A stretch of 63,841 nucleotides of DNA, the filler included, from Cystobasidiomycetes sp. EMM_F5 (lineage: Eukaryota), in the NCBI GenBank assembly GCA_051047955.1. It is 3 parts of 3 records of this genome, joined end to end, with 100 filler letters (N's around TTAATTAATTAA, not from the genome) between each part and the next. Parts side by side here need not be neighbours in the genome. Positions count along the whole stretch, not along the records: positions 29,646 to 57,644 come from JBPGPT010000069.1; 2 more parts are not named here. One strand, 5' to 3'. The position numbers and the translations under genes were made by a program. The notes beneath the pieces are model-generated. The model had not been told where the DNA came from, did not search any database, and was given only the letters and a program-made list of their open reading frames with translations. Positions 34,446 through 57,644 of this stretch are shown in pieces. Position 1 is the first letter of the stretch; the number at the start of each line of letters is the position of its first letter.

Positions 34446-36041
34446 TCAAGCCAACTCCTTGAACCTTTGAATGGCAGCATTGCGCAACAGGTCGAAACGG
34501 CTCCAGCTGAGAATGGAAGCAGTCCGCTCAGCTTCGGAGAGGGTCGTTGCGTTGAGGGCCGCAGTCAGACTAGCGAGGTCCGATACCGCGGCCATTTTGA
34601 AGCATTTTGTGGGCTCCGCGTCGTAAAAGGCCATGTACCACTTATGCTGCGGAGTTGGGCGTTTCGCCTCATTGAAAGCCGCTGTGAGCTAGGGTGTTTT
34701 ATCAGACGCCGTGATTATGGATGGACAGCCTACGACGTACTTTCATCGGTCCAGCGAGATACAATGCGTTGTCTTGGAGAGTCATAACGCTCGGGTAGCC
34801 AGCTACGTGAACCCAGCCTTTACAGTTGTCGGAATCTACGAATGCGATGTTGTGTTGAGTTCCGTTTGGGCCGACATGGTGCTTGCTCCCAGCATGATTG
34901 TACTTGACTACTGAAAAGAATGACGAGGGCAGGCTCAGCCCAGCCTGCTGTGCACAGAACAGAGTGTGCTGAGTCTGAAGGTGAATTTCGGGTCAGGTGG
35001 CATCTGCACGAAGGCAAACGAGGTGAACCTACAACGATACGTGGATCGCCATTGACGCCGTAGTACAGGGGCAGATTGTTAAGCAACTCCTCTCCAAGCT
35101 TCTCCGCCTGGATTTGCAGGTCGGTGAGAGACCTTACAAAGCCGGGCAGATCCCCTGAACTCTTGCTGAGTTTCCATTCGCTGTTGCTGATGACAGCGTC
35201 CATATCGCTGCACATGCGCACGGCAATGCCGATATCGGCCAAATCTGTATTCCATTCGTCGCCCTGCTTGCAAGGGTCCCAGAATAAGGGCCTAACCGAC
35301 TCGTATGTTGCCCTACGGGTGTCGAAACCGCCCGCGCTGATTCGAGTTGGCGACGCGCTTGCCAGTAGACGAAGAATATGACCCGCCTGTACTAGATTCT
35401 AAAGATCCAGACGAAGCGATTGAGAGAGCACGCTTGTGGAGGGGCGTAGCATCGATGAGAGACGTACCACCCTGCACTTGCGCTTGGAGATGAGTAGTTG
35501 GTGAGGAGGAAGGACCACGGGCAGGAAGGACGGTAGAGTTGGATACCGGAACGGGATTCTCGCCCGTCATCGGGCTAGAAACAGCCAGCAGAGATGCCGG
35601 GGGGCTAGGACCGCTGTAGGAGAATGCAGATATGTTAGCGCAATGTAGCAAGCTGTACTATCAAACCTACTCTGCGACGCGAAACGGCGAGGTCGCTTCT
35701 GCCAGGGCAATGAGGCGATCCTGCTCAATTTCGTTGGGGTCGGGACTGGACGTGAACGGCCAGCCCGAGTGAGGATCCAGGCCTAAAAGCGTGTAGATAT
35801 CTCCGCCTGGCGGATACTGTCCCTCTCGGAGCCATGCTGGCGCTTTCATCGCGATAAATGCCTGGCAAGGGAAGGCGCGCGGCCTTTTAATGCCGTTGGA
35901 AAAAATGGGACTGGAGTGCTGGCGAGAGGGATGGAGGCTCAGGCCATCGCGCTGGAGTGGATGCAAGTGGCCAGGGCTGCAAGGCAGACGGAACGGAGGT
36001 GGAGAGGGGCGCAATGATAGATTATGGATTTCGATGCTCAC
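34446..36041 (-). CDS. Probable spliced hypothetical protein (island cargo); structure uncertain
   Basis: Chain of co-oriented ORFs (35667-36041, 35313-35651, 34820-35242, 34446-34634) ending at GT-like donors; no recognisable domain. Confidence 0.4.
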
Positions 36042-36846
36042 AATAGCCTGTATATAAGTAATACAATGGTACTACTGTCCAATCCTATCTCCTTTGCGTA
36101 GTCCAGCTTAGGCCTGTAGTTTATGAATCTGCGCAACCCTCACACCAAATCCAGGAGCACCCGTATGCAAAGCTGGGGCGGCGAGTCAGCCGTACAGGGC
36201 CATGTCGATGAGAGACATGGCACACTGCCGTTGCTATTGTTGACATGATAGGCTGCGCCTGAGTGGGGGAGGGCAGAAGCACAATCGATCAGCTACGATT
36301 GTCTAGACGTAAATATAACGCGATTTACATGTGCTACTTCACCGTGTGAAGATCCTGTGTAGATGTAGCAGAGCCTAGCATGTGCATCGAGACCGTATTT
36401 ACACGCATGACTTTACACAGAGAACAGGCTAGTAGGACCACTAGCAGACGAGTATCCGTAAAACTACCGAAAGTACGCCAACTCTAGCGTGGACAGACTA
36501 ATGCAGACCTCTGATTTCACTGAACGTCGGTACATTTACTACAGGCTCGGGATGTTTACGCAAAAGGAGAGACTAACCGTGAAAACGAGGAGATTGTATG
36601 ATTGGAAGTCTGCAGGGGCGAGCACAAGCGATGTCAGAGCCTCTTGCCTTGCAGAGGGTTGACGTATTCAAAATACTTACGGAAAGATTTGAAAGCTGAG
36701 CGAGGAGACAATGCGGCGAGCAGAGACGATGAGAGTCTCATGCCAAAGGCGCCATCGGGGAAACAGAAACGGTGTGGGGATTCTCGCTGCTGCATGTAGA
36801 ATGCCGAAGCCAGCAGAGTGGTAGCGAGCAGGACGGGCACGTACGC

Positions 36847-39800
36847 TCAAAGTGGGACAAGGCCAGTCTTGGAATACGGAGAAACACTGACTGTCGGCCA
36901 TTGAGGAATGAGATTGCCAGAGTAGTCTGCAGTGTGGCGATGTCGCTGGTCGACGTCGTTGCGGCTGAGCCTGAGTGGAGCACGAACAGCCGGTGTTGAC
37001 CGTGTAAGCAGTGCGCGCTCCTCGACGCCCTCTCTCAGAGGAATGACGTAGTGTTTGCCGCCATCGCTGGAGATGTGCTGGATGTTACAGTCTGCTACGA
37101 CGACATCGGCCTCTTCGGCGTTGTACCCGAGTTCGCTAATGATTTCCGAAAGGTAGGGGAACCCTGGTGACACTCTCATGTCCCGAATGATTCCCTCGGG
37201 CATGGGTCGCACTGTTGATGCGGTCGACGCCGACGATGCAGAGGTCGATGAGAGACCTACTGCAGCCGATAGCGGTTGCCAGCCTACGGTGTGTGTGCGG
37301 GGAGCCGGAGAGGTACTGGATGGGCCCTTTGACATATACGCCGCCATTCCGAAAGGATCGTCTTCGTCATCGTCGTCGTCGTTGTCGTCGTTGTAAGTGG
37401 ATTCAAAAGTCTCCCGCTTCCTCTGCCTGCTCTTTTTGCCCCGCCTACGTCGCTGCGATTGAGCGGGCATCTCATTCACCGGCGGCTGGGCCGGAGCTGC
37501 CTCTGCGAGTCTGAATTAGCCAGAGGTATCGCCATGCTAACGGACGACATGCTCACCATTCGTTGAACTACCGAACAACTGGCCGTAAGCTACCCTGCGA
37601 CGGTTGACTTCTGCGTCGGTATGGCGGGGTCTGGCGATGCTGCGAATCAACCAAAACAAAGCCCGTCGGCCTTCCTGATCAAGAATAGGTGCACTGTCCA
37701 AGCCGGGAACCATTAAATACAGTCGTTCGATGCAGCAACTGTACATGCAGCCTTGGAATTTGGCGATATAGCCTGGGTCTTGCAGATATGGAGCTCCGAC
37801 GTGCCGACCGACGCTGAAGGAATTGACGAGCCATAGCTCTTTGAGATTGTGCAATTCTTCGACGAGGCAGAACCAAGAGAGACACGGCATGTCTTCCACG
37901 ACCAGTTTTGTGATGGTTTCGAAGGCAGGGATATACCAATGGCGTACAAAGTCCGTCCGGAACAGACCGACAGGGTCGTAGTAAGGACCTCCAACGAGAA
38001 CCAAGCTTGTAATACCGCGACACGAGGAGAGAAAGTCGAATAGCATCCACTCGTACACATAAGGGACGACGCTGTCCTCGAGGCGGGAGCAAGAGTGCTG
38101 TACGCGAAAATCCAGTGACAGACTGTGGAGGAGAACATACGCGCGAGATTTTGTCGAAGGATAGTCGGAAATGTAATGCCTCCATTGGGTATCAAACTGC
38201 TGCGGCGTACCTACGATGCCCGGCATGTTGTATCGCTCGCCAAAATCCCGGATGTATGCTTTGGGGTATAATGGCCCCGTCTCGCCTTTTCCGTCGTTGT
38301 ATAGCCGAAGGACAGACAGCAGAGACTCAAAGGCATCGATGGAGCGGATTTTGAGCGAGATACCTTCGGAAACAGACCCTCTCCATTGCAGATTCCAAGC
38401 ATTTGGCCGCTTGATAGCATGCAATGCTGCCAAGATGTTCCAGCTTCCCAAAGATATTGCCAACAGCGAGCTGGAGCGAGCTTCCCACGTCGACAGAGTG
38501 TCGCTGACTGTAGTGCCGCGCCAGACAAGAGTTGAGCGCTCAAGAGCGGCTCCGTAATTGGAAGCTGCGTCGTCTGGGTGAGAGGCTACGCCGTAAGTGA
38601 GCAGAGCTTCTGATGGGAACGGGAATCCTAGGTGCAACAAATCGTCCAACACGAGCCTAAGCCCATGATCTTCGACGACGTTGTCTATATGTACTCCGGC
38701 ATAATGCGGCGTCTCGTGCGATTTTGGATATCGGTTATGCAGATTGAAGAAGATGGCCTCGCGTATCTGCACGAATTTTGGCAATGGATTCAAGAAACGT
38801 AGGCTATCCCAGTCGGATTTGAGGGTGCTCGTTGGATATTGCGATGGCGACGCCTCAGGGGCTGCGGAGAATGCAGTGGGTCCAATGCGTGACTGTACGA
38901 GTGTGAGTGCGGCAGCGGCAGCTCGAGATGACGGCTTTGATGGAATGATGTCGACATCTACGGCCGGTTTTCCAGCAGTGCTGCCTGAATTGAGAGCTAC
39001 TTTGGCGGAGGCTCCTGGTGTCGATGAGAGACATTGTTCACCTGCCGGTTCGCTGACGGTCGAAGGGATGCGGGACACAACAGGAGAGTCGACGGGCTCC
39101 TCGAGTGACAATGTCGATGAGAGACATATGTCTAACCCGCGAGCCAAATCAGCGGAGCCCGTCGATGAGAGACGACTTGCCGATATGGAAACTGTCGGTA
39201 GTGTCTCGCACTCGACGACATGTTGTACTGTAGCGACGGCCTGTCGGGACGCATTAGATTAGTGAAAAGCTGGTTGCCAATAGTAACGATAACGGACCGC
39301 CTGTTTGCCGACGGGCAGTTTCAACGTTGGAGAATGTATAACCGAGCTGGCCGGTGTGGGCAAAGTATTGCTTGAGCTGCTGCTGCTTTGAGAGGTGGAC
39401 CTATCTATGGCGACCGATGAGGGGAAACTGTGATAGCAAAGCTCATCAGCTACTAGAATTGCGAAAGTGTACTAAAGCACGTACTAATCCTCGGGACTAC
39501 ATTCATGGAAAGTATCATGCGACGCGTTGCTGGGAGAAGGCGGCAGACGCAGTCCAGATTTGTCGGCTGTAGAAGGCAAGGGGGTGAGAAATCTAGACAG
39601 GCCGAGCGCGTCTATGTCTTGCTGGGATAAAAGGGCGGGCCAGAGGATTGCGGGCTCGCCCATTCCCGGAAAGTCTGATGGGAGTGGCCGAGCAGCTCCA
39701 GGGCGTGTTTTGATCCATGCTATGAGACCGAGTCGCAGGCAAGCACTAGCTGCTGCTCTAGCAGCGGCGTCCCTCGTACGGAAAACATCGCCGGGGTAAG

Positions 39801-40952
39801 CGCCCACTTCGAAGACGTCGCCCAGAGGTCCACGGACTTGCAGGACTGGCCAGTAGGCGTTGACTTTTCCTTGCGTAGCGGCAGACGATTCTACTTGATG
39901 CAGCCGTTTTTGACCACGGATTGTCGCTGGTTGAGCCGGCTGCTGGGTAACGGACGGAGTCCACTGCTGAAACGCAGAGTAGTACAAGTGTGCCCCTTCA
40001 CTATCATAAGCAAGGGATACATGACCCGCAACGACGTGATAGCGAAAGTCAAAGTCGGGCATAAGTTTTGAGAGGAGGAGCATAACGAAGGGAGCGTTGC
40101 AGTACCCGGGGATGACATCGTCGATGAGGGACGGTTGCCATGTAGGAGATGTGCAAGTGAATGGTTCCTCCCTAAACCGTGTCACCATTCTTTGCTCTGC
40201 CTCGCTGTAGACCATCTTGTCGCAATCGCGTCCCACAGCTGATTGTCGGCACAAATAGCCGCCCATGTTGCGGCGTTCTTTCCGGGATATAGGCGCCATT
40301 CGCCTGCCGGGCCGAATTCTATGATAATGCACGGACACGGCTGACCTTCAACGTCCTCTGACATGCTCGTGGATATGTATCGGCGGAAATCGAGCGGGCA
40401 CAATCTCTTGTATCGATCCTCACACAGGTTCCTTGGGGGCGTAAGGTCTGATAATCCTACTATGAGACTGCTGACTAGGCGCCTGAAGGTAGCCTTTACG
40501 GCCTCTTTCGTTCCTGCGCCTGTCGACATCGCGATGCGGTCCCAGCCATCGGCATTGGAGACGCCTGCGAATGTGTGGAATGACACGCTGGGAGACGCGA
40601 GATAGGTTGGCATACCGGTGGAAGTGGTGTGCCGCAGGACGACCAGAGACGTCTCCACACAGACATTTTCCTCTTCAGGGAGCGAATCCTGTACCGTTTC
40701 CTGCAAATCGGCCAAAAGAGTGGAAGGCGAGGGATCGACGTCGTTGGGCGGCGCTGACGCATGGTAGATTGCAGTGCGTTGGCCAGTCGCCTGGGATTGT
40801 ATCATATGCATGACTTCACTTGTAGCGGTTCGGCCCAAAGACCCCTTTTCGAAGACATGGGTCCACAACTCAATTGCATCTTGGCCAGTCAGAAGGGCAC
40901 CGTCTACATAGACATCTATGCTATTGGCTGCCAGCTCCTTGATTTCTGCCAT
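36847..40952 (-). pseudogene. Unknown large protein, copy A (dsRBD-like + LRR/RNI-like + conserved C-terminal block); frameshifted near 40215
   Basis: ORFs 40182-40952, 39484-40338, 37537-39147 and 36847-37479 are joined by in-frame introns 39484-39428, 39297-39241 and 37556-37503; collinear with copy B. Confidence 0.75.
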
Positions 40953-41369
40953 TCTCAGAGACGAGCGGAGAACGCGTGGTGACTTCGATGAGAGAAGTGC
41001 ACTGAGCGGTTAGGGGGTAGTGCGGCCTGTTCAACTTCGATGGGAGAAGTGTGATACAGGTGTGCAGAGGGCGGGGTGGGATGTTTGAGCTGGATTGTTC
41101 GAATCTTGAGTGGCGTGCTGTAAAGACGGGTCGAGATTAGCGGATGTAAGAACAAATGGAATGGGAGAGCGTCGTCGATGGGAATCGGATGGTGGAGAGT
41201 AGTGGATCACTGGCTACTACTCGCCGTCAGTCCTGCTACGGTGACTCCCGAAATAAATCGAGTGCAAGGCTGAGGGGGGACATGACGAACACGACAGAGT
41301 AACGAGCGACAGCAGATGCAGACACAGTCACAGCACTGTCGATGAGAGACAGTGCTGTGCTATGCCTAA

Positions 41370-41370
<1 letters not shown>

Positions 41371-41410
<40 letters not shown>
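41371..41410. repeat. (CTG)13 microsatellite
   Basis: Read directly; the paralogous position 48387-48401 has about 5 units. Confidence 0.95.
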
Positions 41411-42779
41411 GCCTGGCCTGCCTTTGCCTGGACGGTGAGTTTGTTTACTCACCTGGCGGGACGGAGGGAAGGGGAGGGAGGGCGAGTTTGGTATCGATAT
41501 GATGCTGCTGACGGTGGTATCGTAATGCTATAGCTGCTGCTGATGGTTGTCGTCGGTCGTCGCTTGCAGGCGGTCGAGTGAATTGGTGGTTGAAAGAGAG
41601 AGAGGGGCAGGGAAGGGGCTGGTAACTGATGACCGCGTACCGGCGACAGAACGACAGAGAGCATGGATATGATTCAAGGGCAGCAGTCAGTAATCACCAC
41701 GAATGCTAGTCAGCTGCTGCTACGCGTCTCTCATTGACGCTGGCTGCAGTTGGCAGCGTCGAGCTCGAGAAGGCGGTGAGTGTGGAGAGGAGGCACGGCG
41801 AGTGTGAGGAGCGTGTGGGACTAAACTACTACGTGTCAGTGTCAGTCCTGATCCCTGCTCTACATCTTCTGCCAGCTCGGCCTGGACGGTATAATCGCTC
41901 TTCTCCATTGTGGCACTCTGCAAGCGACCAAGGCTCCCGGACGACATGTGATGCATTGTACTGACTAGAGAGCTAATGCTATATGCTACAACGAAGAAAC
42001 TGAGCTCCCTCCCGCAATTTCCCGTACTGCCGAATCTGGCAGGTGGGGCTACCCCTGAGCAGATTTTACGCGTCTGAAGGAGCGGAGACGCGTAAACTCC
42101 ACTGCTAATACTCACTCTTGGGTGGAGCTGCTCTGCACCCCACCTGTGACTTTCTATCGCTACTTGCTGCTGCTTCGTGCCGGACGTGTAGCAAAAGCCC
42201 GTACGACGGCGTGGAGCGGGCAAGGAATGGCGGATAATGAGCGTAGGCTGCAGTGTGCTGTCCGCAGGTGTACTGTCTCTCATCGACAGAGTAGCCGGCT
42301 CGCGAGGAGCTGGTATGTTCGGCTGGACATTGGGTGCGGTTGCGGACAGGGTTCACAATCGTAGCGAATGCCAGCAATGTTGTAGCAAGACCAGAGGAGA
42401 GCCCAATCGCCTAGTAATGCCAAGCAAAATTGGATTCATTGGCCTACAACACTGACATCCGTGCTAAAAGCGAGCTACACTGACAGAGACTGGTGAACCG
42501 AATTTAATGACAGAACTACTGAACAGAGACTTTCCTGCGAGTACAATGGCAAAACGCTACGAACGGATACTGTGAAGCTGAAGCTGCTGACAGTGTTACT
42601 CGTGTATGCCGGAATGCGGAGACGATGAGAGTCTCACGCACTAAGCCGGCTGAGGGGAAGGCGGAGAAATAGAAGCTGGACCATAAGAGCGAATTAGAGG
42701 GATCGGGCTATCTAAGCTGCCTACGTAACTCTACTCACTATGGGAGGATGCTGACGTAACAGCAAGAGAGGGGCAGCAT

Positions 42780-45700
42780 CTAGATCCAGCCGTCGTCTTC
42801 GGTATTGTACGGTGGTGGCTGATTGATATTGTTGTAATTAGTTTGTCCCCAAGTCGACGTGCTGTGATGCTGAGTATTGTAGCCATGAGAGGCAGTCGGA
42901 GGGTACATAGTGCGAGCAGACTGCTGATGGCGATGACTGGATCCATGTTGACGGTTGTCGGAGTAGCTGTGGTAGCTGCCTGGATTGTGATGATAGTTTC
43001 CGCTGCCATTGTTCCCGTAGTAGCTCCCAAACTGTCCGGCTGCATGTTGAGGAGGAGCTTCATTGAAGTGGGCAGACGTATACGGGGAAGATGCATAGCC
43101 ATTATACGACGACGAAGGGTGGCCTGAGTGGGACGTAGACGACTGCAGAGCGTAAGACTGAGGGCGTGGCTGAGCAGTGGTATGCCACGAGTCTTTGAAG
43201 AGGTTTGGCGCATTACTCGGACGACTGGCAGGGTATGAGCTACGGCCATTGGATCGGCGATTCGAATTGTTGGCTTGACTGATTCTAAAGGCCTCTTCAA
43301 CTGACACGTAGGGCGACACGTCCCTTTCGGGATGTTGGGGTATCGCTTCAGCATCCGTAGGGGCGAACCTGGAGTCGCTTTGGTGCTGAATGTCTACGTC
43401 TAAGCGAGTCATAAGTTTTGCGTCCGACTGCACTTCGCCCAAAGGACGAGTGTAAAGAGCCCTCTCCAGTACTCCTGGCCGTATGCTGGAATGAACGTAA
43501 AAGTCTGCATCGGATGGCGAAATGTACTGAATGTCGCAGTCAGCTACGTTGACGTCGAAAGCCTCGCCAGGAGAAGACAATTCCTCGATGAGCGCTGCGA
43601 TATGATTGAAGCCGGCCGATATACGGACGCGACGCAGGACATGAGGACCTATCTTGGGTATCACAATAACCGGGGTCGATGAGAGACCCACTGGCATGTT
43701 GCTATTCCCTGCAAACGACTTCTTGGACGGGCGGTAAAAGTCGGCATCCAATTCGCTGTCCGATGAAGTATCGTCGTCTGTGCCCTGTCTCTTCTGTGCA
43801 ACCTTCTTGCGCTTTGAAGCCGCTTTCGACGGCGCAGGACCAGTTACAGCATTGCCTAGGCCATCGGTGAGACCGACAGGCTGTCTTCAACTGACACGTA
43901 GGGCGACACGTCCCTTTCGGGATGTTGGGGTATCGCTTCAGCATCCGTAGGGGCGAACCTGGAGTCGCTTTGGTGCTGAATGTCTACGTCTAAGCGAGTC
44001 ATAAGTTTTGCGTCCGACTGCACTTCGCCCAAAGGACGAGTGTAAAGAGCCCTCTCCAGTACTCCTGGCCGTATGCTGGAATGAACGTAAAAGTCTGCAT
44101 CGGATGGCGAAATGTACTGAATGTCGCAGTCAGCTACGTTGACGTCGAAAGCCTCGCCAGGAGAAGACAATTCCTCGATGAGCGCTGCGATATGATTGAA
44201 GCCGGCCGATATACGGACGCGACGCAGGACATGAGGACCTATCTTGGGTATCACAATAACCGGGGTCGATGAGAGACCCACTGGCATGTTGCTATTCCCT
44301 GCAAACGACTTCTTGGACGGGCGGTAAAAGTCGGCATCCAATTCGCTGTCCGATGAAGTATCGTCGTCTGTGCCCTGTCTCTTCTGTGCAACCTTCTTGC
44401 GCTTTGAAGCCGCTTTCGACGGCGCAGGACCAGTTACAGCATTGCCTAGGCCATCGGTGAGACCGACAGGCTGTCCAGGCTGAGTAACAGGGCGGTCGAA
44501 GAGTGGGCCATATGCTGCTCTGCGCCGGCGTACTTCAGCCGCCCCGTGACGTTGAAAGCCTATGCTCCTGAATAACCAGTAGAGCATCGCTCGCGCATTG
44601 TCGTCCATCGACCAAGCGTTGTCGAGACCGGATACTTCAAGTCGCAGCGACTCTATTCGACAATATTCGAGACGCCCTGCTGCCTTGGGAACGAAACCAG
44701 GGTCAGGTAAGCTGACAGCGCCTACGCTACGACCTGTCGAGAAGCAGTTGATTAAGGTAAGGCGCGTGATGTTTTGCGTTAGATTCAAGAGACAGTGCCA
44801 GGTTTGATAAGGCATGTCTCTTATGGACAGGGTGGTGAGGGTTTCCTTGCAGCCGATATGCCATGCGTAGACGAAATCTTCTCGAAAAAGGGCGACGGGA
44901 TTGTAGAAGGGACCGCCGACAAGATGTAGCGATTGCAAGCCGACTACGCACGACAAGAAGTCGAAGAGCATATGCTCGCTTACGTATGGAATTGTGACTT
45001 TATCCAGTGCCGAGCGTTGATGCTGAATGCGGAAATCTATGGCCAATTTGTGCAGTAGCACATAGGCTCGCCCTGCTTTAACGTAGCCCCCGCTGATGAA
45101 CTTCCACCACTCGTCACGAAATTGCTTTGGAGTTCCCCATATGCCCATCATTTGAACTTGGCTGCCGTAATCTTGGAGGTAAGCTTTGGGGAAGAGTGGA
45201 CCCGTCTCTCCTTTGCGGTCATGGTATAAACGTAGGACTGCCAGCAAGGACTCGAGTGCGTCGATGGACCGCAGCTTCAGAGCAATGCCTGTGTCTGCTG
45301 AACCGCTCCACTGAATATTAAACGCGTTTACGCGGCGGATGGAATGTAGAGCGGCCAGGATGGACCAATTGCCCAAAGAGATTTTGTCCAAAGCGGCTGT
45401 CCTTACTCCCCACGTTTCTAGCGTCTCCTTTGTCTGACTACCTGTCCATACGAGTGTCTGTCTGGCGGAAACAGCACCGTAGTTGCGGGCTGCATCGCTC
45501 GGTGGAGATTCCTCGCCGTAAGTGATGAGCGTTTCGCGAGGAAAGGGAAAAGGTAGTGTGAGCCGCTCATCGAGTGTAGCTCGCAGCGCTATGTTGTTGA
45601 TTACATCGTCGATGTGCACGTTTCCGACATCTAGTACTTCGTCTTTGCGGGGATAACGGTTGTGCATCGAATGGAAGATGGCGCTACGTGCGTCGATGAA

Positions 45701-47967
45701 TGTGGGGAACTTTACGAGCGGACTGAGGAGCTCCCAGTCGGATTGGATAGTGCTCGTAATCCCGGAGGGGTCGAACGGCAAGGGAGGGGGAGCGAGTAGA
45801 ATCCTAGACGCAGCAGAGATAGCTGTACTGGATGCAGTTGCCGCTCTTGCTGCTAGGTCGACTGGGACGTGCCCGGTGAGCTTCATGCCAGGCTTCCACT
45901 TGATTCTCCCCGACTTTGAAGCTACTGAGGCCGATGCTACTGATGTCGATGAGAGACATTCTTCGCTAGCCGGTTCACTGACAGTGGATGAGACGCAAGG
46001 GATCGAGACAGTATCATCTAGTCGCGGAGAAGGCTTGCTTGGTGATGGCAATGTCGGTAACGTGCTCGTTTCCTGTTCAAGTACATCGCCAGCTACTAAT
46101 GTCGATGAGAGACATGTTTCGCTGGGTAGTGCTGTCACTGCAGCTGCCACTGATGTCGATGAGAGACACTTTTCGCTTGCTGCGGTGATAGGAGGAGACT
46201 CTGGACGAGTAGCGGTTTGGTGCTGCGGGAAGCCAAAGTCAGCGTAGGCGGTATGAACGAATTTGGGTAAAACGCACAACTACTGCCACAGCCGGTGAAT
46301 AGGATGCCTCGCTGCCGCTCCAGTCGAGCTCTTCCGTGTCCACGTCCATGCTATGGGCAACTGACATAACTGGTGCTCTGAAAAGAACAAAACGAGTCAG
46401 TGGATTGGAAAAAGCGGTGCATCATGGCTTACTTTACTGCATTCTGTGCAGGTGGTGACTGGGGCGTGGGCGGTTCGTCTATATCCATTGATGAATCTAA
46501 TTGTGGGCCGGCTGCCAAAGACTGGGCGGGCTCAGCCGCAAAACTCTCGCTGAGCGGCGTCAGAGGCGAACTAGGCGTAGGAGGAAAGGGAGCCGATTGA
46601 ACAGAGGGGGGTGTGTATGGCACTAGAAAGTCTGCTAGTCCCAATGCGCTAATCTCAGCTTCGGTGGCAGCTGCTGGCCAGCGGTTAAGCGGCGGTCCTG
46701 TACCCGGGAAATCGACGGGGATGGAATGGGCAGTGCTTTGTAGTCTCCTGACCCAGCCTACTAGTCCGAGTCTCACGGCGGCGTTCGCAATCGCCCTTGA
46801 TGCGAGTTCACGTGTTCGAAACACTTCATTCGGACCAGCTGCAACCACTAAGCAGTCTCCCAAGGGACCGATGATCTCGAGGAGGGGCCAGTATGCGTTG
46901 ACCAAACCGGAGGTATGCTGTGAAGCGGCATTCTGGTACGCTCGATGAGCGGCACGGCCCGTATTTGCTGTGGTAGATGTAAACGTGGACGGAGTCCATG
47001 ATTCGTATGGAGCCAAGCGTGCTTCGTGCGGATCAACTGTTTGGTCGATGTAATAGTAGCCGGCGACAACGTGGTAGCTGAATTGAACGTCGGGCATGAG
47101 TTTTGAGAGGAGGAGAATAATGAAGGCTGCGTTGCAGTACCCGGGGATAACATCGTCGGTGAGAGACGGTTCCCATGCGGGGCTTGTCCAATTAGCGGGT
47201 GCACTCCTAAACTCTGCGACGATTCTCTCTTCTGCTCCGGTTGGTGAGTAAAGGTGGTTCGCTATAGCCCAGTAATCGTCCTGCTGAAGCGCGTTGGTCC
47301 ATGCTGCCGCATCGTGTCCCGGTACGATTCGAAGATGTGGTGGGTCGGGGCCTACAATCATGCAGATTGAGCCTTCCGTCAGGAATAAGTGGGTACGTGG
47401 GTCCAGCGGCACGACACGCTTGAAGCGATCTGTTACTTGATTTCTTGAAACAGAGGTAGGTGGAGGCTGTACGCCGAACATCTGTCCGAGACCTCTCAAC
47501 GTGGCCTTGATTTGCTGTTTCGTATGCACGCCGGGCGTCATAGCAATGCGATCCCAGCCTTGATCGTTGGCTGTCACGCTGTTGTAAGTGTGATATGCGA
47601 CGCTGGGTGTGGTGAGAAAAGTGCGAACACCGCTAGCGGGTGTCAGATGCACTGTCAGCTGACCTATCGTAATCTCGCGGCGTTGCTGCCTATGTTCATC
47701 GGCTTCGAGGCTGGACCGGATGTATTCCAGCTTGGTCAACGCTCGAGTAGGTGCGGAGACGGGATGGGGAGTGCTGTGAAAGAACTGCAGCCTTGAATCG
47801 GCCTGTTGCATAGTGAAAAGGTCTGTGATCTGAGCTCGGACATGTGCTGATATGCCTTGGCCGTCGAAAGCGGAATCCCACAGCTCGGCTGCATCTTGGC
47901 CAGTCAGAAGGGCACCGTCTACATAGACGTCTGTGCGACTGGCTACTAGCTCCTTGATTTCTGCCAT
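42780..47967 (-). CDS. Unknown large protein, copy B (same architecture plus a Y/N/Q/G/S/H-rich tail); frame broken by a 590-bp tandem duplication
   Basis: ORF 46429-47967 joins ORF 43856-46279 through in-frame introns 46432-46378 and 46277-46223; tail in ORF 42780-43751; shares MAEIKEL..DVYVDGALLTGQDA, DDVIPGYCNA..LLLSKLMPD and MLFDFLS with copy A. Confidence 0.75.
43294..44475. repeat. Apparently perfect 590-bp direct tandem duplication (43294-43885 and 43884-44475)
   Basis: Identical text at offset 590, identical ORF translations (43491/44081, 43679/44269) and a 2-bp TC microhomology at the junction. Confidence 0.97.
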
Positions 47968-50628
47968 TCTCAGAGACGAGCGGAGAACGCGCAGTGACTT
48001 CGATGAGGGAAGTGCACTGAGCGTGTAGGAAGGGGTGCAGCCTGTTCAACTTCGATGAGAGAAGTGTGAAGCAGGTGTGAGGGAGAGGAAGGGAGCGAAT
48101 GGCTGGACTGGCTCCGTCGTGCTGGAGTGGCGTGCTGTAAGACGGGTCGAGATTAGCGGATGTAAGAACGAATGGACTGGGAGGGCATCGTCGATGGGAA
48201 TTGGATGGTGGAGAGTAGTGGATCACTGGCTACTACTCGCCGTCACTCCTGCTACGGTGACTGCCGAGGTAGAGCGATTCCAAGGCTGACGGCGAACGCG
48301 GCGGAGGTGACGGACGGGCGAGCGGCAGCAGATACAGACACAGTTACAGCACTGTCGATGAGAGACAGTGCTATACTATGCCTGAGCTGCTGCTGCTGCT
48401 GCCGCTGCCCTGTCTGCGCTCATCATCTGAGAAGGGCGGGTTTGTTTACTCACCTGGCGGGACGGGAGCAAATGGAGGGAGGGCGAGTTTGGTATCGATA
48501 TGATGCTGCTGACGGTGGTATCGTAATGCTGGAGCTGCTGCTGGTGGTTGTCGTCGGTCGGCGCTTGCTGGGGGTCGAGTTGGTTGGAGTTTGAGGGAGA
48601 GGGGCGGGGAAGGGGCTGGCAGCTGGCGACTGCGTACCGGCGACGGAAGGACAGAGGGCATGGATATGATTCAAGGGCAGCAGTCAGTCATCACCACGAA
48701 TGCTAGTCAGCTGCTGCTGTGCGTCTCTCATCGACGCTGGCGGGGGCTGATGGAGTTGGGTGGGCGGGCGAGTGGAACACTGAGCAGGTCAAGGGAGGAG
48801 AGCAGCGGACGAGGGTGAATCTGGTACACGTTAATCAGTGCTTGGACGTGGCTGATCAGCTGTATCTGGACTGCGGGGCTGCCGGTGGTGGTCGCGGCTC
48901 AGCATCCCAATGGACGTATGCAGGGAGCACAGAGCAGGCTGAGCGGCAATTGGCAATGTGGTACTGACTATACTGATGCTACTGACTATCACTGAGTACA
49001 CTGTTCCCTCTCCCGTCTCCTCCCGACCTGCCGAATTTGGAAACGGCCGTACTACCCCTGAACGAGTTTCGACGCGAGTTACGATGCGGAGACGCGTAAC
49101 TTGGGTGTGATTAGCCTCACCGTGATGTGCACTGAGAGTATATGGTGTTGCAGGAGGTTTGAGCACTGTTTGACGGGTGTATATCTGACTGGCTATGACA
49201 AACAGAGCTGGGCGAGCCTACAACGGATATCTGAAGCCGTAACTGAAGCTATAGGCTGGTTGCAAGCGTGGTATGATGCTGCCGTGTGTGTGACCTGTCT
49301 CAGCTGGATGTCTGTCTCTCATCGACAGCTCCGAGCGGGATGGCGGGGCTAAACAGATGTGAGCGCCTATGGGGGTGAGAGGATGGGTAGAGAATGGCGC
49401 TGTGAGTGCCGAGGTGATGCTACTGCCTGTCTGATGTGACTGGTCGCTGATTTACGTGGAAACGGTGATGTTTGCGGCGATGAGGACTGTGACGGCTAGG
49501 CTAGCGTGGGACTGGAGCGTAAGCGGACGTAATAGATGAAAGTGCACTGTCGTTGTGCATAGTATGCATGCGTGTCGGGAAGCTGTCTGATGTCGTGTCG
49601 ATATCTGTCACTGTAGCTTGAAGTGGCTAGCTGGGTTGTCTGACGACTACAACATGGGAATACTATGAGACAACGGCGGACCTACTACAGTATGGTACTC
49701 TCTGTAATGCTGCTGCGGCCACTCCTGTCCTGGTCATGCCTCTCATCGGCAGCAGTGGGGGGTTGCATGAATGACTTGCCATGCGGGCCTGCACGGAAAA
49801 GCGACGGTAGTCTCGAGTAGGGGAGGGAGGACAGTGTATGCAGGCAGACTGCATCGTGGGAGATGGTTAAGCTACTGTCCGAGCTGGAATTGTCTCTCAT
49901 CGACAAACTGTGCTCGGCTGTACAGTAGTTTGGCTGGGGGGCTGGTGGTCTGGGTGAGCGAGCTATTTGCGCAGACTGACACTGATGCTGAGGATTGGGT
50001 ATACAACAGACAATTGCTACATCGTCGTGCTATACTCTATTGCGCTGCCTGGAGTCTTGCACTGTGTTATGGTCTCGTCTCGTTGGGGCTGTTTTGATTC
50101 TACTGGAACAGGGTAGAATGTCTCGAATCGCTGTCAGGTTGGAATACTAGCATATACTACCTACACACACTGCTCTCATCGCTGCTGCTGCTGTGTCTCT
50201 CATCGACACTCAGTGCTGTTGGTGGTTCTATGGCGTGCCTGGGTGGCAAACGTCGAAGGGCAACAGCGCCGTCAATAAACATCTTGGAGAGCTGGGAATT
50301 GCACTGAGTGGCTAGATACAACGTCTGAGGGTACTGTCTTTGCCTGCTTCGCTATATCGGTGCTGGTTGCTGTGCTGTTGGAGGTCCGAGCTCCTCAGTG
50401 AGGAAAAAGGACCGAAGTTGTTATCTCTGGCTACAGGAGTGCTGGAGATTTGCTGTTTGGTATGGAGATTCTTTGACAGTGCATGGCGATGCTCCGAGAC
50501 TTATACGCTCTTCCGGCTGCTGGGTTTTCTGCAATGCAGACTTGAAGTTTTCTCCCCATGTTTGCCACCAATTTTTGGACTTTGCCACCGGAATGGGGGC
50601 CCATTCCTGGCAGTATATAAGTAGGTTC

Positions 50629-51688
50629 CAGAGTGTCCGTAACTCACGCACGAGACACTCTGGAGGCGGGAGGTTCTGTGTACTGGATGTCAGCGCCCTT
50701 CAAGTCGTCTGCGATGGGCCAGCACCTGCGATATCCAACTTTTCTGTCATTGTCATGCAACTTGGGGAGGTCGGTGCGTTGGACCTGGTTGACGACGAAG
50801 CTCTGCGACTGCAATGCTGATGCTGCTGCTATACACAGATATCATTGTTTCTTGACTGTCTTTCTGATTGTAGGTGCTGAGCTTGTTATGATGTCTGGCT
50901 GGCCCGTCTGCCTGACGAGAGTGGACTGACTTTGAATGACAGAGCTAGTCTTTTCGGAAGTGGTTGCTCGCTACTTTGCTGCGGTTCTCAATATATATGA
51001 TGGATCTCTCTCCGTGTTCTGGCTCTTTATCTCCGCCTTCCCCTGCTTGCGATTCCGTCTATGCTTTTCGTGCGGTCCAGTCTATTATGACGATAAGCAT
51101 TGCTGATAACGCTCCATGCTGTCTACAGCCTTGCTACATTCACTCTATCGCTGGCTTCTCCCATCTACCTTCTTTTGAGATGACTGCGACTATTACTTCG
51201 GTTCGAGAGCTATGACACGGATCAGGAGACGGTAGAAGGACATGGAGGATGGGCCTAGACGTGTGATTTGAAGTAAAGAGTTGATATTGGTGCGCCCTGA
51301 TGATGACTACATGGTCTGCCTCGCTGGGTGTAACTCACGCACATCCAGCGAGTGCATGATCTGGCTTTGCCGTCATCAACAATGAGCTAAACTGCGGACT
51401 CCCGACCTGTGATTACAGATTCGAAGCAAGGACACACGGCATCGACGAATGTACGGCTACCCGACTACTGTCTTGAATACGGTTGTCGACGCTTTGCTTA
51501 TTCTCCACAACGACCTCGGCTGCTACTACATCAGTTCAATCATCGACACTGTGTGCGAATCTATCACATCAACACACTCTCCTCTCCATCGTCTGTGCAA
51601 CTCACGCGCATAGACTCGTAAGTCGTATACACTAGTAACTCACGCACTAGGTGTACGCAGGGCTACACGTAATTCACGCACGTGTAGC
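50629..51688 (+). repeat. Stem-loop family 2: five hairpins with 9-nt loop AA(C/T)TCACGC and unrelated 8-13 bp stems
   Basis: 50629-50663, 51320-51352, 51591-51615, 51624-51657 and 51662-51688. Confidence 0.9.
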
Positions 51689-52439
51689 TGGCGGAGGATG
51701 CTGATGGTCTTTGATATACGGATAGCCAAACTATGGGTCGCGTCTCTGCTTCTCCACCTTTGGTTGCTGTGTTTGGTACAGCTGTGGTGGTGACTTGCGG
51801 GGCATTCTGGGAGGCAATACTACGGGTTTACAACGTTGGCTTAAGACTGTACACTGGACACCTGCTCTGCTTGATTGGCTATGCTACACAGTATTGCTCT
51901 GCCTCTATGCTGGTGGCGGAATACAGCGACTTGACTTGACTTCATCGGATGGCTACGAAACTTGGTATACATATAGTTCACTTCTCTTACATTGCTATGA
52001 ACATGCCCGGATGACTGGAAACATCTCTGCCTGGATGCTGTTGGTGGTATTATGTTCGTGCCTGGCTGTGCCTGGCTGTGCCTGGTGGCGACAGCGGCGT
52101 ACAATAACTCTGTCAATATACATCGTCGGCAGCTATAAGTCTGCACTGAGATTCTTCATAACATTTGAAGCAACTTTGTCTATTCAGTTTTCTTATATCG
52201 CTTCTGGTTTGGCTGCAATTGAGACTTTTAGCTCCTGAGTGAGAAAATTGGGCGAATCGCTGTAGCTCAGTCAGTATTAACGCTGGAGATCTATAAGTCT
52301 CGCCTGAGATTGTTCTGCTATGCTACAATCATGCTTGCTTGTCTGTTTGTCTTTAGCGGCTCTAGTTTTTGTGCAAATGAGACTTGAAGTTTTTCAGTAA
52401 CGATCAGGCACAGCGCCCATAAGTTCTCACTTTCTACAT

Positions 52440-55400
52440 TATATGAGTAGGGGTAGCCTTTCCAGTGTACGAAGTAGTCTAGTCGTCCGTGATTGAGTCG
52501 AGAGTCAAGTGTCTTTTCGACGATGTACTTGGGTGTGCCGTTCTCGACGATGGGATCGGGAGGGGGAACGACCATGCGTTGCGGATGTACATTAGAGACA
52601 TACTTCTCGAGAAGGGACACATGGAAGGTAGGGTGAATGCGCATAGTACCGGGAAGGAGGAGGCGGTAAGCTGAGGAACCAATCTTCTTATCGATTTCGA
52701 ATGGTCCTAACTTCTTAGCATCGAGTTTGGAGGAAGGACGAGAGGTGGAGATGTTTCGACGAAGGAGCCAGACTTTATCGCCAGGTTTCCAATTGGGAGC
52801 GGGGAGGCGACGTTTGTTGGCCCATAGACAGTGTTGAGAGTGAGCATGAGCGATAGATTCTTGCGCGAACTCGTGAGCTTTGTTAATTCGTACAAGTCGC
52901 TTCTCAATATCGGGAACAGAACAATCATCAGCAGTAAGCGATAGTCTAGGATGATACCCATGGTTGGCATAGAAAGGGGACATGCCTATAGTCGAATGAT
53001 GTGTAGAGTTGTAGGCAAATTCGGCTATAGGGAGGAGGTCGACCCAATCATCTTGCAGGTAATCACAAAAGAGGCGAAGGTGTAGCTCGACTGATTGATT
53101 AGTGCGTTCCGTCTGTCCATCGGTCTGAGGATGAAAAGCGGTAGAGAGAGCAGGCTTGACTTTGAGCATGGTGATGAACTCGGTCCACCATTCGGATGCG
53201 AAGGTGGTTCCACGATCAGAGACTATATCATTTGGCAGACCATGTAGCTTCCAGATATTGTTAAGGTACTGACGGGCAAGATCGCGAGAAGTATCGGTAG
53301 CTTTGGTTGGAATGTAGTGTGCCATCTTAGTTAGTCTATCAACGACGATCAAGATGCTATTGTATCCTTGGCATCGAGGCAGGTCGGTAATATGATCCAT
53401 GGAAAGGGAGAGCCAAGGTCCTTTGGGGATGGGAAGAGGCTGAAGCAAACCATAAGGGCGATGATGAGCGGCCTTACTTCGCTGACAAGGGTCACAGGAG
53501 TTTATGTAGTCATTGATGAAAGCTCTCATGTTCGGCCAATAGTAGTTGCGGCGAATGATCTCAAGAGTCTTTGCTTGACCGGGGTGTCCTGTCTCCATTG
53601 AGTCATGAGCTAGCTGGAGGATGCTGACGCGTATAGTCTCGTAGTTCGGAACATAGATTAGGCCACGAGATAGGAGGATACCGTCATTGCTAAGTGTCCA
53701 GGCTGGATCAATGGAGTCCCGATTGGCTTCAGGATCTTGGAGTACGGCGAGGATGTCATCGAGGGCAGGATCACGTTGCTGGAATAGTTTGATATCGGGT
53801 AACAGACGTGATACGGAAGAGTGCAATGTGACTGCCGAGATTTCGAGAGGACGAAGTAGCTGCAGTGGTTCGGTTTCGCTAGCTTTTCCCCCCGCTGCAA
53901 AATCGGGACGACGAGATAAGGCATCAGGTTTACCGGACTGATCACCCGGACGATACTTGATAGTATACTTGTGGTGATTGATGATCTCTGATCAACGAGC
54001 TTGACGACGAGTGAGAGTCTTCGACGTCTGGAAGTATTGAAGAGCTTGGTGGTCGGTCAATATGGTGAACGGTAGTGATAAGCCTTCGAGATAGTGTCGC
54101 CAGATCTTTACAGATTCGACAATTGCAAGGAGTTCTTTATCGTGTATTTCATAATTTCGCTCGGCGGGGTTCATTTTACGAGACATGAATGCAACCGGAC
54201 GCAAGACAGTGCCGTGATACTGAGATAATATACCGGAGATTGCGTAGTCGGATGCGTCTGTCTCAATGAGGGAGGGTAGGGCGGGATCATAGTGCGAGAT
54301 GACTTGACCCAAGCTGAAAGATTCCTTTATCGAATTGAAAGCAGAGCGAGCAGGCATGTCGAATTCGAACTTGACTTCTTTGCGCAGAAGACGAGTCATA
54401 GGAGCGATGATGCGAGAGTAACCCTTAATGAACCGGCGGTAAAAGTTTGCGAAGCCAAGGAATTGTTGTAGCTCGCGTACTTTAGTAGGTTCGGGCCAGG
54501 ACATTACAGAGTTAACCTTATCTTGACACATGGATACACCTTCGGGAGTGATGATGAAACCGAGGAACTCAACAGTAGTGACGTTGAAGACACACTTGTG
54601 ATTTGCAGCATACAAGTTGTTGTCAATCAAACGCTGGAGTACCTGGCGGACGTGAAGGGTATGTTGCTCAGGAGTGTCGGAGAAGATAAGGAGATCATCG
54701 AGGTAGATGAGAACGCAAACGTCGAGCAAGTCTCTGAACTTGTCGTTCATGAAATGTTGGAAGACTGCAGGAGCATTTGTGAGACCGAAAGGTATTACAA
54801 GGCATTCGAAGTGACCGTAACGAGTGCGAAATGCTGTTTTCCATTCGTCACCTTCCTTAACGCGGATGAGGTTGTAAGCTCCACGTAAGTCAAGCTTGGT
54901 GAAGATGCGAGCAGATCGTAGGCGGTCGAGAGCTTCGGGGATGAGCGGTAGAGGATATCGGTTCTTTATTGTAATATTGTTAAGAGCACGATAGTCTACG
55001 CAGAGCCTCAGCTCGCCGGACTTCTTCTTGACGAAGAGGATAGGAGCGCCGGCGGGAGACTGCGAAGCACGAATGAAGCCTTTAGACAGATTCTCATCGA
55101 GCCAAGTTGACAAGGCTTGAAGCTCGATTGCGGATAAGGAATAAAGTGGACCGTAAGGAGGTTGCTTGCCAGGCTCGAGATCGATAGATAGATCATATGG
55201 TCGATGAGGTGGCAGCACATCCGCTTTAGCCTTTGAAAATGCTGAGAGGAGGTCATGATACTCAGACGGAATGACAGCGCGCAGCGTATCAACGAAGTCT
55301 GGAGGGTCAGTCATATCATCAGGGAATGGAGCTGCCCTAAGCTCATCCGAGGAGATAGCGCTGAGCTCGAGAGACTTCTCCGAGTACATGAGAGTTCCGA

Positions 55401-56016
55401 CAGTAGAACTCGACAACGATGCAATAGCGTTGAGCTGAGATGAGTCGACCCACGCGATATCAAGAACAGGAGGAGGCGCGGTCGAAGGCACGAATGGGAG
55501 GGCCTTCACCGGCAGAGAACTAGAATCGCGGAAGGTGACAATTCGCTTTCGCCAATCGATATCAGGGTTGACTGTGCGAAGCCAAGGCATTCCGAGAACA
55601 AGGGGATATGCTCCAAGTTTTGCGACATCGAGATTGAACGTTTGCGATGACGATCCCACTTGAGCAGAGACTGAGCAAGAATGTGTGACGGCACCGGAAG
55701 CTATGGGTCGGCCATCAATCACAAAGAGAGGAACAGGTTCAGGTTTCGCGATAAGCATGAGTTGATGCTGCTTCACGAAGTCGGCATCCAAGAAGTCTGA
55801 CGTTGCACCGCTGTCAACGAGTGCAAGAGTAGACAGGGTAACAGACGATGAATCAGATAGTCGATGATGGAGAGAGACTGGAACGACTATAGGATTTTCT
55901 GGAGACGAGGAGACTGAGGTTGCCGAGATCGTGGCCGCGCTGATTGAAGAGTTACGAGGCGCCACGTTGATGGAGTGCGGAGCTAGACGCGAAGGCTCAG
56001 GACTCAGGCGTTTAAC
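52440..56016 (-). pseudogene. pol: Pol (PR-RT-RH-IN-partial chromodomain) in the -1 frame relative to gag; in-frame TGA at 53992-53994
   Basis: [60 protein letters not shown] (AHDS..GH..CDPC), IVSDRG, TDGQTER, GPF and YFVHWKGYP. Confidence 0.95.
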
Positions 56017-56948
56017 GGAGCGGGAGCATCAACAGGAGCGGTGAGCACTGCCTGCAGACGGTGGCCTCGATTCTTTTTAGCGGGACAATGGACTGCGATG
56101 TGACCTTCACCACCACAATAAGCGCACAGGTTGTTATCACGACGGCGCTTCTTCTCAGCATCGGTCAATGGCTTGAATTTGCGAGAGGCGGCAGAGTCAA
56201 GATCCATTGGGGTATCGCGAGAGGTAGAAGTAGTAGTGGTAGTGGAGGTGACGGAGGTCTGAGCCTGGGTACGAGGAGCAGATCGCGCTTGGGCATTACC
56301 GTGATTGGCGGGGCGATGGGATTTGCCTTCCTGCTGACGTTCGAAGAGTCTGTTGTCGATACGGATGCAGAGCTCTTGGAAGTCCTTGAAATCGGCAGGT
56401 TCATCGGTGACGTGAGACAGGATGTCTTTGACTGAGTCCTTCAAGCCATCGTAGAAGTATGTACGGAGGGCAGCGTCATCCCATGTAAGATACTGGCGTA
56501 TATTCTCAAATTCGGTACGATAGGCAGCAGCGGAGTTTGTCTGACGAAGAGATTTAAGCTTGCGTGCCATAGTACGTTCATGATCTGCATCGCCAAGATT
56601 ACGGATGAGTGCGGCTTGAAAAGCATCCCAGTCGCGACAGATAGGATCGTTCTTGTTGAGGAGAGGTTCGAGCCAAGCGAAAGCCTTGCCGCGAAGATAC
56701 GTTGCAGCGAAGAGCACTTTCATTTGGTCGTCAACGAAGAGATGAGGGTTGCCGAGGATGAACAGTCTGCACTGAGTGAGAAAAGACTGGCATCCGTTGC
56801 GGTCTTTGCCATCATACTCAGCCGGTTTGTTGAGCAAGCGGCCGAAGTGAGCAGAGACGGCGATGGGTTCGGCGGCGACGGCGGCGGCAGCGGCGAGTGC
56901 GGCGGCTGCAGCTGCGTCAAGGTTGTCTGGGATATGGGGCGTAGACAT
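56004..56948 (-). CDS. gag: Gag with CCHC zinc knuckle
   Basis: [34 protein letters not shown] and [14 protein letters not shown]. Confidence 0.95.
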
Positions 56949-57180
56949 GGTTGAGCAGGAGCGAGTGTCGAGTCTTAATCTAGTTGTCGCGTACGCAAAA
57001 CGGCGGAGGCAGAATTGGCGGACGAGGGCTGGGATTCGGACGAGGGGGTATTCGCTGGTGCTCAAGAGTGCAAGGGCTGGAAAGCTAGAGACTGGGGGGC
57101 TGTATTGCGCAGATGAATATTGTTTGTGAATCAGATTAAGACTAGAGAACAAGAAGGACTATGAATCTTACAACGCCTTT

Positions 57181-57610: not shown

Positions 57611-57644
57611 GTACCCCCGGGTTCAAACCCGAACTCCGAGAGGG

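Follow-up and report, generated by a model that had tools for sequence, protein, structure and literature searches.

Two classes of hairpins with a common CTCAY loop core, confined to one fungal orphan-gene island

The whole stretch of DNA analysed here, which comprises 63,841 bases from Cystobasidiomycetes sp. EMM_F5 (assembly GCA_051047955.1) and is referred to as the window, carries a well-defined system of two classes of hairpins that is confined to one fungal orphan-gene island. The DNA is eukaryotic and resembles that of a basidiomycete fungus. Two 100-base linkers at 29546-29645 and 57645-57744, each consisting of 44 N, TTAATTAATTAA and 44 N, reveal that three contigs have been joined artificially; adjacency across the linkers is therefore not evidence of linkage. 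What had been described as an island is the entire middle contig (29646-57644, 28 kb), a separate fungal nuclear contig. All of its recognized genes lie on the minus strand; they comprise those of a Ty3/gypsy retroelement at the right and, in the rest of the contig, orphan intron-containing genes. To the left of the retroelement, five hairpins of the class termed family 2 follow one another:

50626..50665, plus strand: hairpin 1, 15 pairs, a bulged A in the 3' arm, loop AACTCACGC (50641-50649)
51317..51356, plus strand: hairpin 2, 12 contiguous pairs (51320-51352) including one internal G-T, and three more past a bulge
51332-51340, plus strand: loop of hairpin 2, AACTCACGC
51591..51615, plus strand: hairpin 3, eight pairs including one internal G-T, loop AACTCACGC
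51624..51657, plus strand: hairpin 4, 12 pairs, a bulged A in the 5' arm, one G-T, loop AACTCACGC
51661..51689, plus strand: hairpin 5, ten pairs, a terminal G-T, loop AATTCACGC

The loop motif AAYTCACGC occurs five times in the window, each time on the plus strand (50641, 51332, 51599, 51637 and 51671, together spanning 50641-51679), with a chance expectation of 1.33 and a single one of 100 shuffles reaching five. If G-T pairs and up to one bulge of a single base are permitted, the loops of hairpins 1 to 5 are closed by 15, 15, 8, 12 and 10 pairs, respectively. As a background, eight or more pairs surround a 9-nucleotide (nt) loop at 159 (0.25%) of 63,455 plus-strand positions tested, and 15 pairs are present at just two of them, which are hairpins 1 and 2. 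The array places five hairpins of the same sense within 1.06 kb, three of them inside 100 nt, and no further copy was found in the window when up to three loop mismatches were allowed and stems of at least four pairs were demanded. Five hairpins with a shared loop, unrelated stems and the same orientation had been proposed in an original prediction made from the same DNA; this observation is solid and the sequences quoted for it are correct, with the amendment that hairpin 1 extends over 50626-50665 and that hairpin 2, once bulges are taken into account, reaches from 51317 to 51356.

The arms of the family-2 hairpins have no sequence in common, and their pairing is nevertheless kept. In the five-row alignment of the stems (A2) both sides have changed in nine of 12 pairs, a value reached by four of 500 shuffles, and the covariation score amounts to 0.608 versus 0.228, with none of 500 shuffles as high; some cells of this alignment are out of register owing to the bulges of hairpins 1 and 4, and the covariation holds nonetheless. 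The alignment columns G, AA, TCACGC and C around the loop do not vary. Among the stem pairs, the second from the loop is G-C in every copy, and the closing pair is T-A in four of the five copies, hairpin 3 being the sole one with C-G in its place. Folded as RNA, hairpin 1 attains -24.7 kcal/mol (z -3.97) and hairpin 2 -25.9 kcal/mol (z -4.87). For the triple array 51585-51695 the plus strand yields -40.0 kcal/mol (z -3.0, equalled by one of 200 shuffles) and the minus strand -38.2 kcal/mol (z -1.6, equalled by 12 of 200); the latter fold lacks hairpin 3.

A companion class, family 1, shares the centre of the loop. In a blind scan of the window TCTCATC emerged as the commonest hairpin loop with 25 hairpins, the next loops reaching three to five. 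Altogether, family 1 comprises 34 hairpins with a stem of 5 base pairs (bp), the loop YCTCAYC and the consensus NN-GTC-TCTCATC-GAC-NN:

30912..48375, minus strand: 28 family-1 hairpins, located in 5' leaders, an inter-domain linker, coding sequence (CDS) in three frames and a 3' untranslated region (UTR) of the minus-strand orphan genes
48721..50209, plus strand: six family-1 hairpins with the loop TCTCATC, at 48721, 49312, 49740, 49890 and 50193, plus the paralogous pair 41724/42273 further to the left

When YCTCAYC flanked by at least four pairs is counted, 34 of 49 motifs inside 29646-52300 qualify versus none of 25 outside, and the family extends over 30.9-50.2 kb only, where it occupies UTRs, CDS and also intergenic DNA. 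The first pair is C-G in all 34 hairpins; the fourth is Watson-Crick in all 34 and occurs as four pair types, the fifth is formed in 27, and the sixth in seven, where about 13 would be expected. There are 22 distinct 5-bp stems. Family-1 orientation is the same as that of the minus-strand genes in 28 of 34 cases, and the linker that holds some of these copies lies between the two halves of a large gene. The plus-oriented copies are found upstream of the gene termed geneA (48721 to 50193) and of its paralog geneA' (41724 and 42273). Within a duplication of about 7 kb the family-1 hairpins stand out as conserved islands amid diverged sequence. Upstream of geneA and geneA' lie two 12-bp copies (41329 and 48345); between them, one pair has undergone a compensatory change from C-G to T-A and another has gone from C-G to T-G on the loop strand. 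The paralogs show no insertion or deletion of hairpin size, and copies within CDS keep the frame. These copies are read as CLSST, SLI/SLT or CSHRT, and since three frames are used a CLSST peptide repeat, or any peptide motif, is ruled out as the cause of the family.

The last family-1 copy (50193-50209) is separated from the first family-2 copy at 50626 by 420 bases, and from 48.7 to 51.7 kb the plus-oriented copies of family 1 are continued by family 2 as a single series on one strand. The original prediction was right in that both families have a CTCAY core in common and that the second begins where the first ends. Several candidate sources of the hairpins were discarded. An assembly or adapter artefact is ruled out by hairpins that lie in frame inside conserved paralogous genes, a role as branch points by introns that use CTGAC, and mimicry of tRNA anticodon arms or T-arms as well as Ire1 sites by a loop consensus that does not fit their definitions.

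Which strand folds, and as which molecule, can be approached from the wobble pairs and the stems. Five internal wobbles occur in the two families (at 51332, 51599, 51637, where the wobble lies past the bulge, 35454 and 48357), and all of them are G-T on the strand that bears the CTCAY loop. An opposing wobble is limited to one weak A-C in the paralogous pair 40123/47158, where the stem may be just 4 bp long. In family 2 every wobble, that is three internal ones and the terminal pair of hairpin 5, is G-T on the plus strand, as had been predicted, and the array folds better on this strand. The call from the wobbles agrees with the fold energies and with the orientation of family 1 relative to genes, and the plus strand is the likelier folding strand of family 2. 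Because the stems are free in sequence yet kept by pairing, a protein site in double-stranded DNA is largely ruled out as the basis of the pattern. A stem of 5 bp with a loop of 7 nt is too weak to form a cruciform. Taken together, these two properties imply that the folded form is a single strand, RNA or single-stranded DNA (ssDNA), and it is probably RNA.

A transcript that could carry family 2 is suggested by the surroundings of the array. Between 48.6 and 52.3 kb no convincing open reading frame (ORF) is present on either strand, and a possible promoter element precedes the first hairpin:

50614..50621, plus strand: TATATAAG box, 4 nt ahead of hairpin 1, a possible plus-strand promoter for a transcript carrying hairpins 2-5

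Upstream of this box lie two copies of TTTGCCACC and the palindrome GGAATGG-GGGC-CCATTCC. The window contains seven matches to TATAWAWR, four of them in the middle contig, and these four are all on the plus strand. The lack of an ORF in combination with the TATA box leads us to infer a non-coding plus-strand transcript that would include at least hairpins 2-5.

The candidate function that we tentatively favour, at a confidence that stays below even, is that of single-strand, probably RNA, hairpins that display CUCAY for recognition by a protein. Family 2 would represent a second specificity class of island-specific single-strand recognition hairpins. In each element the conserved apex, made up of the loop and two to three closing pairs, would be read by the protein, and the lower stem would merely have to pair. 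The apex would read G-Y-AAYUCACGC-R-C in family 2 and GUC-UCUCAUC-GAC in family 1, and in both families the strand showing the CUCAY (UCAY) core would be the sense strand for transcription at that place. Family 1 could be a short class scattered through the mRNAs of the island and family 2 a long-stem class arrayed on a non-coding plus-strand transcript divergent from geneA. The start of this transcript may lie behind the TATA box at 50614, and the array within it would then consist of hairpins 2-5. The density of same-sense copies in family 2 suggests multivalent binding, and the hairpins may act as multivalent docking sites for a putative loop-specific nucleic-acid-binding protein. Of the features that characterize protein-recognised conserved-loop RNA hairpins as a functional class, three are seen, namely a conserved loop with conserved closing pairs, compensatory change in the stem and a consistent strand; the fourth would be a cognate binding protein. 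The structured non-coding RNA named among the options in the original prediction comes near to this reading and remains a candidate.

Several points weigh against it. The strand call from five wobbles corresponds to no better than about p = 0.03-0.06, and G-T is formed in ssDNA as well. Plus-strand transcription across family 2 is something that we infer, and the TATA box lies so near to hairpin 1 that this hairpin would be missing from an RNA initiated about 30 nt past the box. GC skew is positive through 48-50 kb without a change of sign where family 1 flips, so base composition shows no sign of a change of the transcribed strand. Family-1 stems are weak, with energies from -1.7 to -7.9 kcal/mol, and family 2 is known from one locus, without a paralogous or orthologous copy. 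A domain scan of 33 ORFs recognised no RNA-binding domain in the island proteins, and structure models of these proteins are unusable (predicted local distance difference test score, pLDDT, of 34).

If the hairpins are read by a protein, they would constitute a compact natural structure-plus-loop code that extends over a whole eukaryotic gene cluster, CDS included. The 13-nt apex in two classes would then be a direct handle for finding the reader protein and would allow a test of how fungal orphan islands are placed under joint regulation or separated from the remaining transcriptome. A bolder version, which we consider unlikely, is a lineage-specific fungal "RNA address code", in which two CUCAY-loop classes would tag every transcript of one orphan-gene island. 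The 5-bp/7-nt class would do so in CDS in all three frames and the long-stem/9-nt class on the divergent non-coding RNA, and a dedicated putative protein might sort, package, silence or co-regulate the RNAs of the island as a set. If true, the code would be the cellular equivalent of what dispersed packaging signals are in viruses.

Several known systems invite comparison with protein-recognised hairpins of this kind. Iron-responsive elements (IREs) have by definition an apical loop of six nt, CAGUGN, with an unpaired C located five pairs further down the stem. The five-IRE array in the 3' UTR of the transferrin receptor resembles family 2 in its same-orientation hairpins spread over about 1 kb of non-coding sequence, and IREs, which are read by protein as RNA, likewise combine a conserved apical loop with unrelated stems and tolerate single-base bulges. 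Family 2 differs by a loop of nine nt, AAYUCACGC instead of the six-nt CAGUGN, in five of five copies, by A bulges at differing depths in two of five in place of a fixed C bulge, by a companion family in CDS and by a transcript that is putative. The IRE system together with the iron regulatory proteins (IRPs) is named in PMC4693282. In the dispersed packaging signals of single-stranded RNA viruses and of the pregenomic RNA of hepatitis B virus (HBV), many stem-loops share just a loop motif, according to PMC7612645, PMC5699041 and PMC6281560; they are degenerate stem-loops on one strand, in coding and non-coding sequence, with free stems and, in HBV, the loop RGAG, and in these respects they are like the island hairpins. 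In contrast, the island hairpins reside in nuclear fungal DNA with spliceosomal introns, their two loop classes occupy separate blocks and they lack a recognised capsid partner. KH domains of the Nova type bind UCAY/YCAY, which has been selected in vitro as a hairpin-loop motif. Nova targets and both island families have a UCAY centre, which is UCAU or UCAC in family 1 and UCAC in family 2. Nova sites in vivo are, however, unstructured clusters, whereas the island hairpins possess a 13-nt conserved apex beyond the tetranucleotide and no KH protein is linked to them. YCAY clusters are named in PMC2014790. The UCAY core recalls the targets of KH domains, and as with IREs and packaging signals the likeness is one of analogy that carries no claim of homology.

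Other established hairpin types fit less well. Rfam returned no match for the whole window at gathering thresholds, and for 50000-52400 four sub-threshold chance matches with E values of 0.33-9.2, none of them on the hairpins. Integron attC sites have conserved stem bases (R''/R' with GTT), a variable centre and an integron integrase nearby. In the island hairpins this pattern is inverted: the loop and its closing pairs do not vary, the outer stem does, and the context is eukaryotic. No description of such hairpins was found in the titles and abstract openings retrieved from the literature for the loop sequence, fungal stem-loops, basidiomycete recognition elements and nuclear palindromes.

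Among the alternatives, it appears unlikely, but deserves consideration, that the hairpins are neutral by-products or selfish mini-palindromes with no function of their own, made by a lineage-specific mutational or insertional process (for instance template switching at a CTCAY site or a tiny mobile hairpin) that generates inverted repeats around the motif. Confinement to one island, unrelated stems and the tandem packing of hairpins 3-5 speak for such an origin. It is weakened by the frame-keeping of family-1 copies in CDS, by the lack of hairpin-sized insertions or deletions between paralogs and by the duplicates, in which conservation of the hairpins exceeds that of the flanking sequence, with one compensatory change. 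In addition, stem length is held near 5 bp, as seen from the deficit at pair 6, and two to three loop-closing pairs are conserved.

We regard it as distinctly improbable that the hairpins are ssDNA signals for nicking, termination or replication origin in a rolling-circle or Helitron-like element, with the family-2 array as its 3' subterminal signal on the plus strand. Origins of this type (CRESS/geminivirus) are defined by an NANTATTAC-like nonanucleotide loop beside a Rep gene with HUH and helicase domains. A 9-nt loop on stems that vary between copies is indeed the format of HUH Rep origins and the Helitron 3' hairpin, three hairpins are packed in 100 nt, GC skew in the contig is strong and one-sided, and G-T pairs are compatible with ssDNA. 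The loop of family 2 agrees with NANTATTAC in length but not in sequence; five copies stand in tandem where one per replicon would be expected, and the related family 1 occurs mostly on the opposite strand (28 of 34 copies) and within genes, in many cases within conserved CDS. No Rep, RepHel, helicase, HUH, transposase or tyrosine-recombinase domain was detected among the 33 ORFs scanned in the contig, and the origin considered in the original prediction is accordingly unsupported. Helitron 3' termini consist of a hairpin 10-12 nt before CTRR followed by a host T, the 5' end is TC, and autonomous copies encode RepHel. Hairpin 5 is followed by 12 nt, CTGA and T and fits this rule; the chance of CTRR plus T is about 2-3% per hairpin by our own estimate, so that the agreement is compatible with chance, and a second copy of any end was not found in the window. 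RepHel is lacking in a contig that is cut at 29646. If the array did end a rolling-circle element, it would present a new terminal architecture for fungal Helitron-like elements.

A terminal or subterminal recognition array, as proposed in the original prediction, is likewise unsupported. What had been taken for the right end of an island is the Ty3/gypsy element and the contig join, and neither terminal inverted repeats (TIRs) nor a direct repeat of the long terminal repeat (LTR) type were found. Ten long-range inverted pairs proved to be family-1 cores or matches of 20-40 nt with 73-90% identity; no transposase domain besides the Ty3 integrase is present in the contig, the left end of which is missing, so that the test for a TIR transposon is one-sided. 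The proposed link to an island-encoded recombinase has to be dropped, for the sole recombinase-like protein is the Ty3 integrase (rve), an enzyme that acts on double-stranded LTR ends.

A further alternative, which we consider very doubtful, interprets 50.56-51.69 kb as the remnant leader (U3-R-U5) of a plus-strand LTR retroelement, with the hairpins as packaging or dimerisation structures of R/U5 and TGGCGGAGGATG after hairpin 5 as the primer-binding site. The upstream TATA box and the 12-mer starting with TGG directly after hairpin 5 speak for it, as does the 5' region of the neighbouring Ty3 element, which possesses a 15-bp hairpin (57510-57546) with the UCAC-containing loop GAUCACU. However, there is no second LTR copy and no direct repeat at both ends of an element, no likeness to the Ty3 5' region, no plus-strand gag or pol downstream and no CA dinucleotide at the supposed LTR end. 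A U3 of less than 100 nt with an R-U5 of about 1 kb would be atypical, and family 1 would be left unexplained.

There is scant probability, in our view, that the minus strand is the functional one and that the loops are five GUGAGU/GUGAAU sequences resembling 5' splice sites downstream of the Ty3 pol gene, serving as decoys for the U1 small nuclear ribonucleoprotein or as spliceosome-stalling signals. A donor consensus GTGAGT in the minus-strand loop had been pointed out in the original prediction, and with GTRNGT as the pattern it holds for four of the five copies, in which the loop is GCGTGAGTT, while the fifth has GTGAAT; a spliceosomal donor would also call for a branch point and YAG further downstream, so placed that a reading frame is restored. 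At 41447 and 48448, likewise on the minus strand, GTGAGT probably serves as a donor, and every recognised gene of the contig lies on that strand. Yet all wobbles would turn into C-A mismatches, the array fold is weaker and loses hairpin 3, and variation within the loop is limited to one base, which coincides with position +5 of the donor (G to A in hairpin 5). The two introns annotated nearby have the donors GTAAGC and GTGCGT and a CTGAC branch point, a donor function leaves the invariant flanking GC and TT unaccounted for, and family 1 with its shared core reads GAUGAGA on this strand and lacks GU. No ORF with a Pfam hit is present on the minus strand between 50.2 and 52.3 kb.

Double-stranded sites for a dimeric transcription factor, to which the clusters in both orientations upstream of geneA and geneA' and the resemblance of the family-1 core GTC-N7-GAC to two inverted half-sites might point, are highly improbable and already largely refuted by covariation, as the arms vary yet stay complementary in both families (pair 4 of family 1, nine of 12 pairs in family 2), those of family 2 share no sequence and many copies lie deep in CDS.

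Outside the window, collections of metagenome, viral and prokaryotic genome sequence, which contain little fungal DNA, were scanned for the patterns; no relatives were revealed among the matches listed, and this negative result is weak. The two-copy family-2 pattern was matched at a minimum of 121 metagenome-contig loci and at least 112 viral-contig loci. Among the matches listed, 233 such loci contained 725 motif sites, 13 of them with at least five flanking pairs, as many as chance would give, and none with the family-2 apex. The two-copy family-1 pattern was found at one viral locus (L234), an unrelated 51-nt tandem repeat, and in no genome contig. In L043, L072, L101, L103 and many further contigs from a few metagenomes the perfect palindrome GCGTGAGTT-AACTCACGC recurs; it is an unrelated repeat family and the source of most non-random pattern matches.

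The retroelement of the middle contig was delimited by a domain scan:

52318..57152, minus strand: Ty3/gypsy chromovirus with gag, protease-reverse transcriptase-RNase H and integrase-SH3-chromodomain

It holds no hairpin of either family. Its gag, pol and integrase ORFs look intact, and a 3' LTR is not detectable within the contig. No direct repeat at word size 7 links 57153-57644 to 29646-52317, and an LTR-type repeat is absent from the repeats of at least 40 nt; either the element has lost its 3' end or the 492 bases preceding gag do not represent an LTR. The 15-bp hairpin with a 7-nt loop mentioned above for its 5' region is on the minus strand, about 290 nt upstream of a possible primer-binding site starting with TGG near 57236. 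The flanking contigs encode Enhancer-of-polycomb, LIM, a Rua1-like C-terminus and 3-hydroxyacyl-CoA dehydrogenase.

The orphan genes of the island are real. The duplicated unit of about 7 kb retains its reading frame, with 35-50% protein identity, and a database gene model of 1688 residues links geneA and geneB via two introns of about 52-55 nt, whose donors (GTAAGC and GTGCGT) and CTGAC branch point are ordinary fungal signals. No relatives of these genes were found in Pfam, PHROG or the PDB, the PHROGs matching the integrase only and a PDB sequence search with two island ORFs yielding only E values above 0.3. In two very large protein collections geneB' and geneA matched only themselves, a protein atlas yielded no usable hit, and structure prediction for ORF2 and for geneA with two paralogous pieces reached mean pLDDT values of 34.0 and 34.5. 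No tRNA or tmRNA gene was detected in the window by ARAGORN, a tandem-repeat finder reported only short unrelated arrays in 48000-52400, and GC content by codon position does not separate coding from non-coding for ORFs in 48-52 kb. A scan for promoters and terminators of the bacterial type is uninformative for a eukaryote. GC skew on the plus strand is positive (0.08-0.27) over the whole middle contig (32000-58000), retroelement included, and T is in excess at 50-52 kb.

The duplication is seen as a tandem repeat of a two-part orphan gene between 36800-41800 and 43800-48800, with 77-89% DNA identity in the best blocks. Inside it, 43294-43593 and 43884-44183 form a 590-bp tandem repeat with a 300-nt core that is 100% identical, which may have arisen by recent duplication or, as an artefact, during assembly; the gene model from the database spans this repeat via an implausible 11-nt intron. 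Upstream of geneA and geneA' both duplicates have kept a perfect 7-bp hairpin, GGTGAGT-TTGTTT-ACTCACC (41434-41453 and 48435-48454), with a donor-like GTGAGT on the minus strand. Finally, 31540-31690 harbours dense inverted GAA/TTC repeats like heat-shock elements (TTCTGGAACATTCAAGAAC and similar), followed by TATAAAAG on the plus strand. This array sits between two minus-strand orphan ORFs and suggests either a heat-inducible promoter antisense to the ORF at 32044-33420 or a TATA-less heat promoter of the ORF at 29726-31516.

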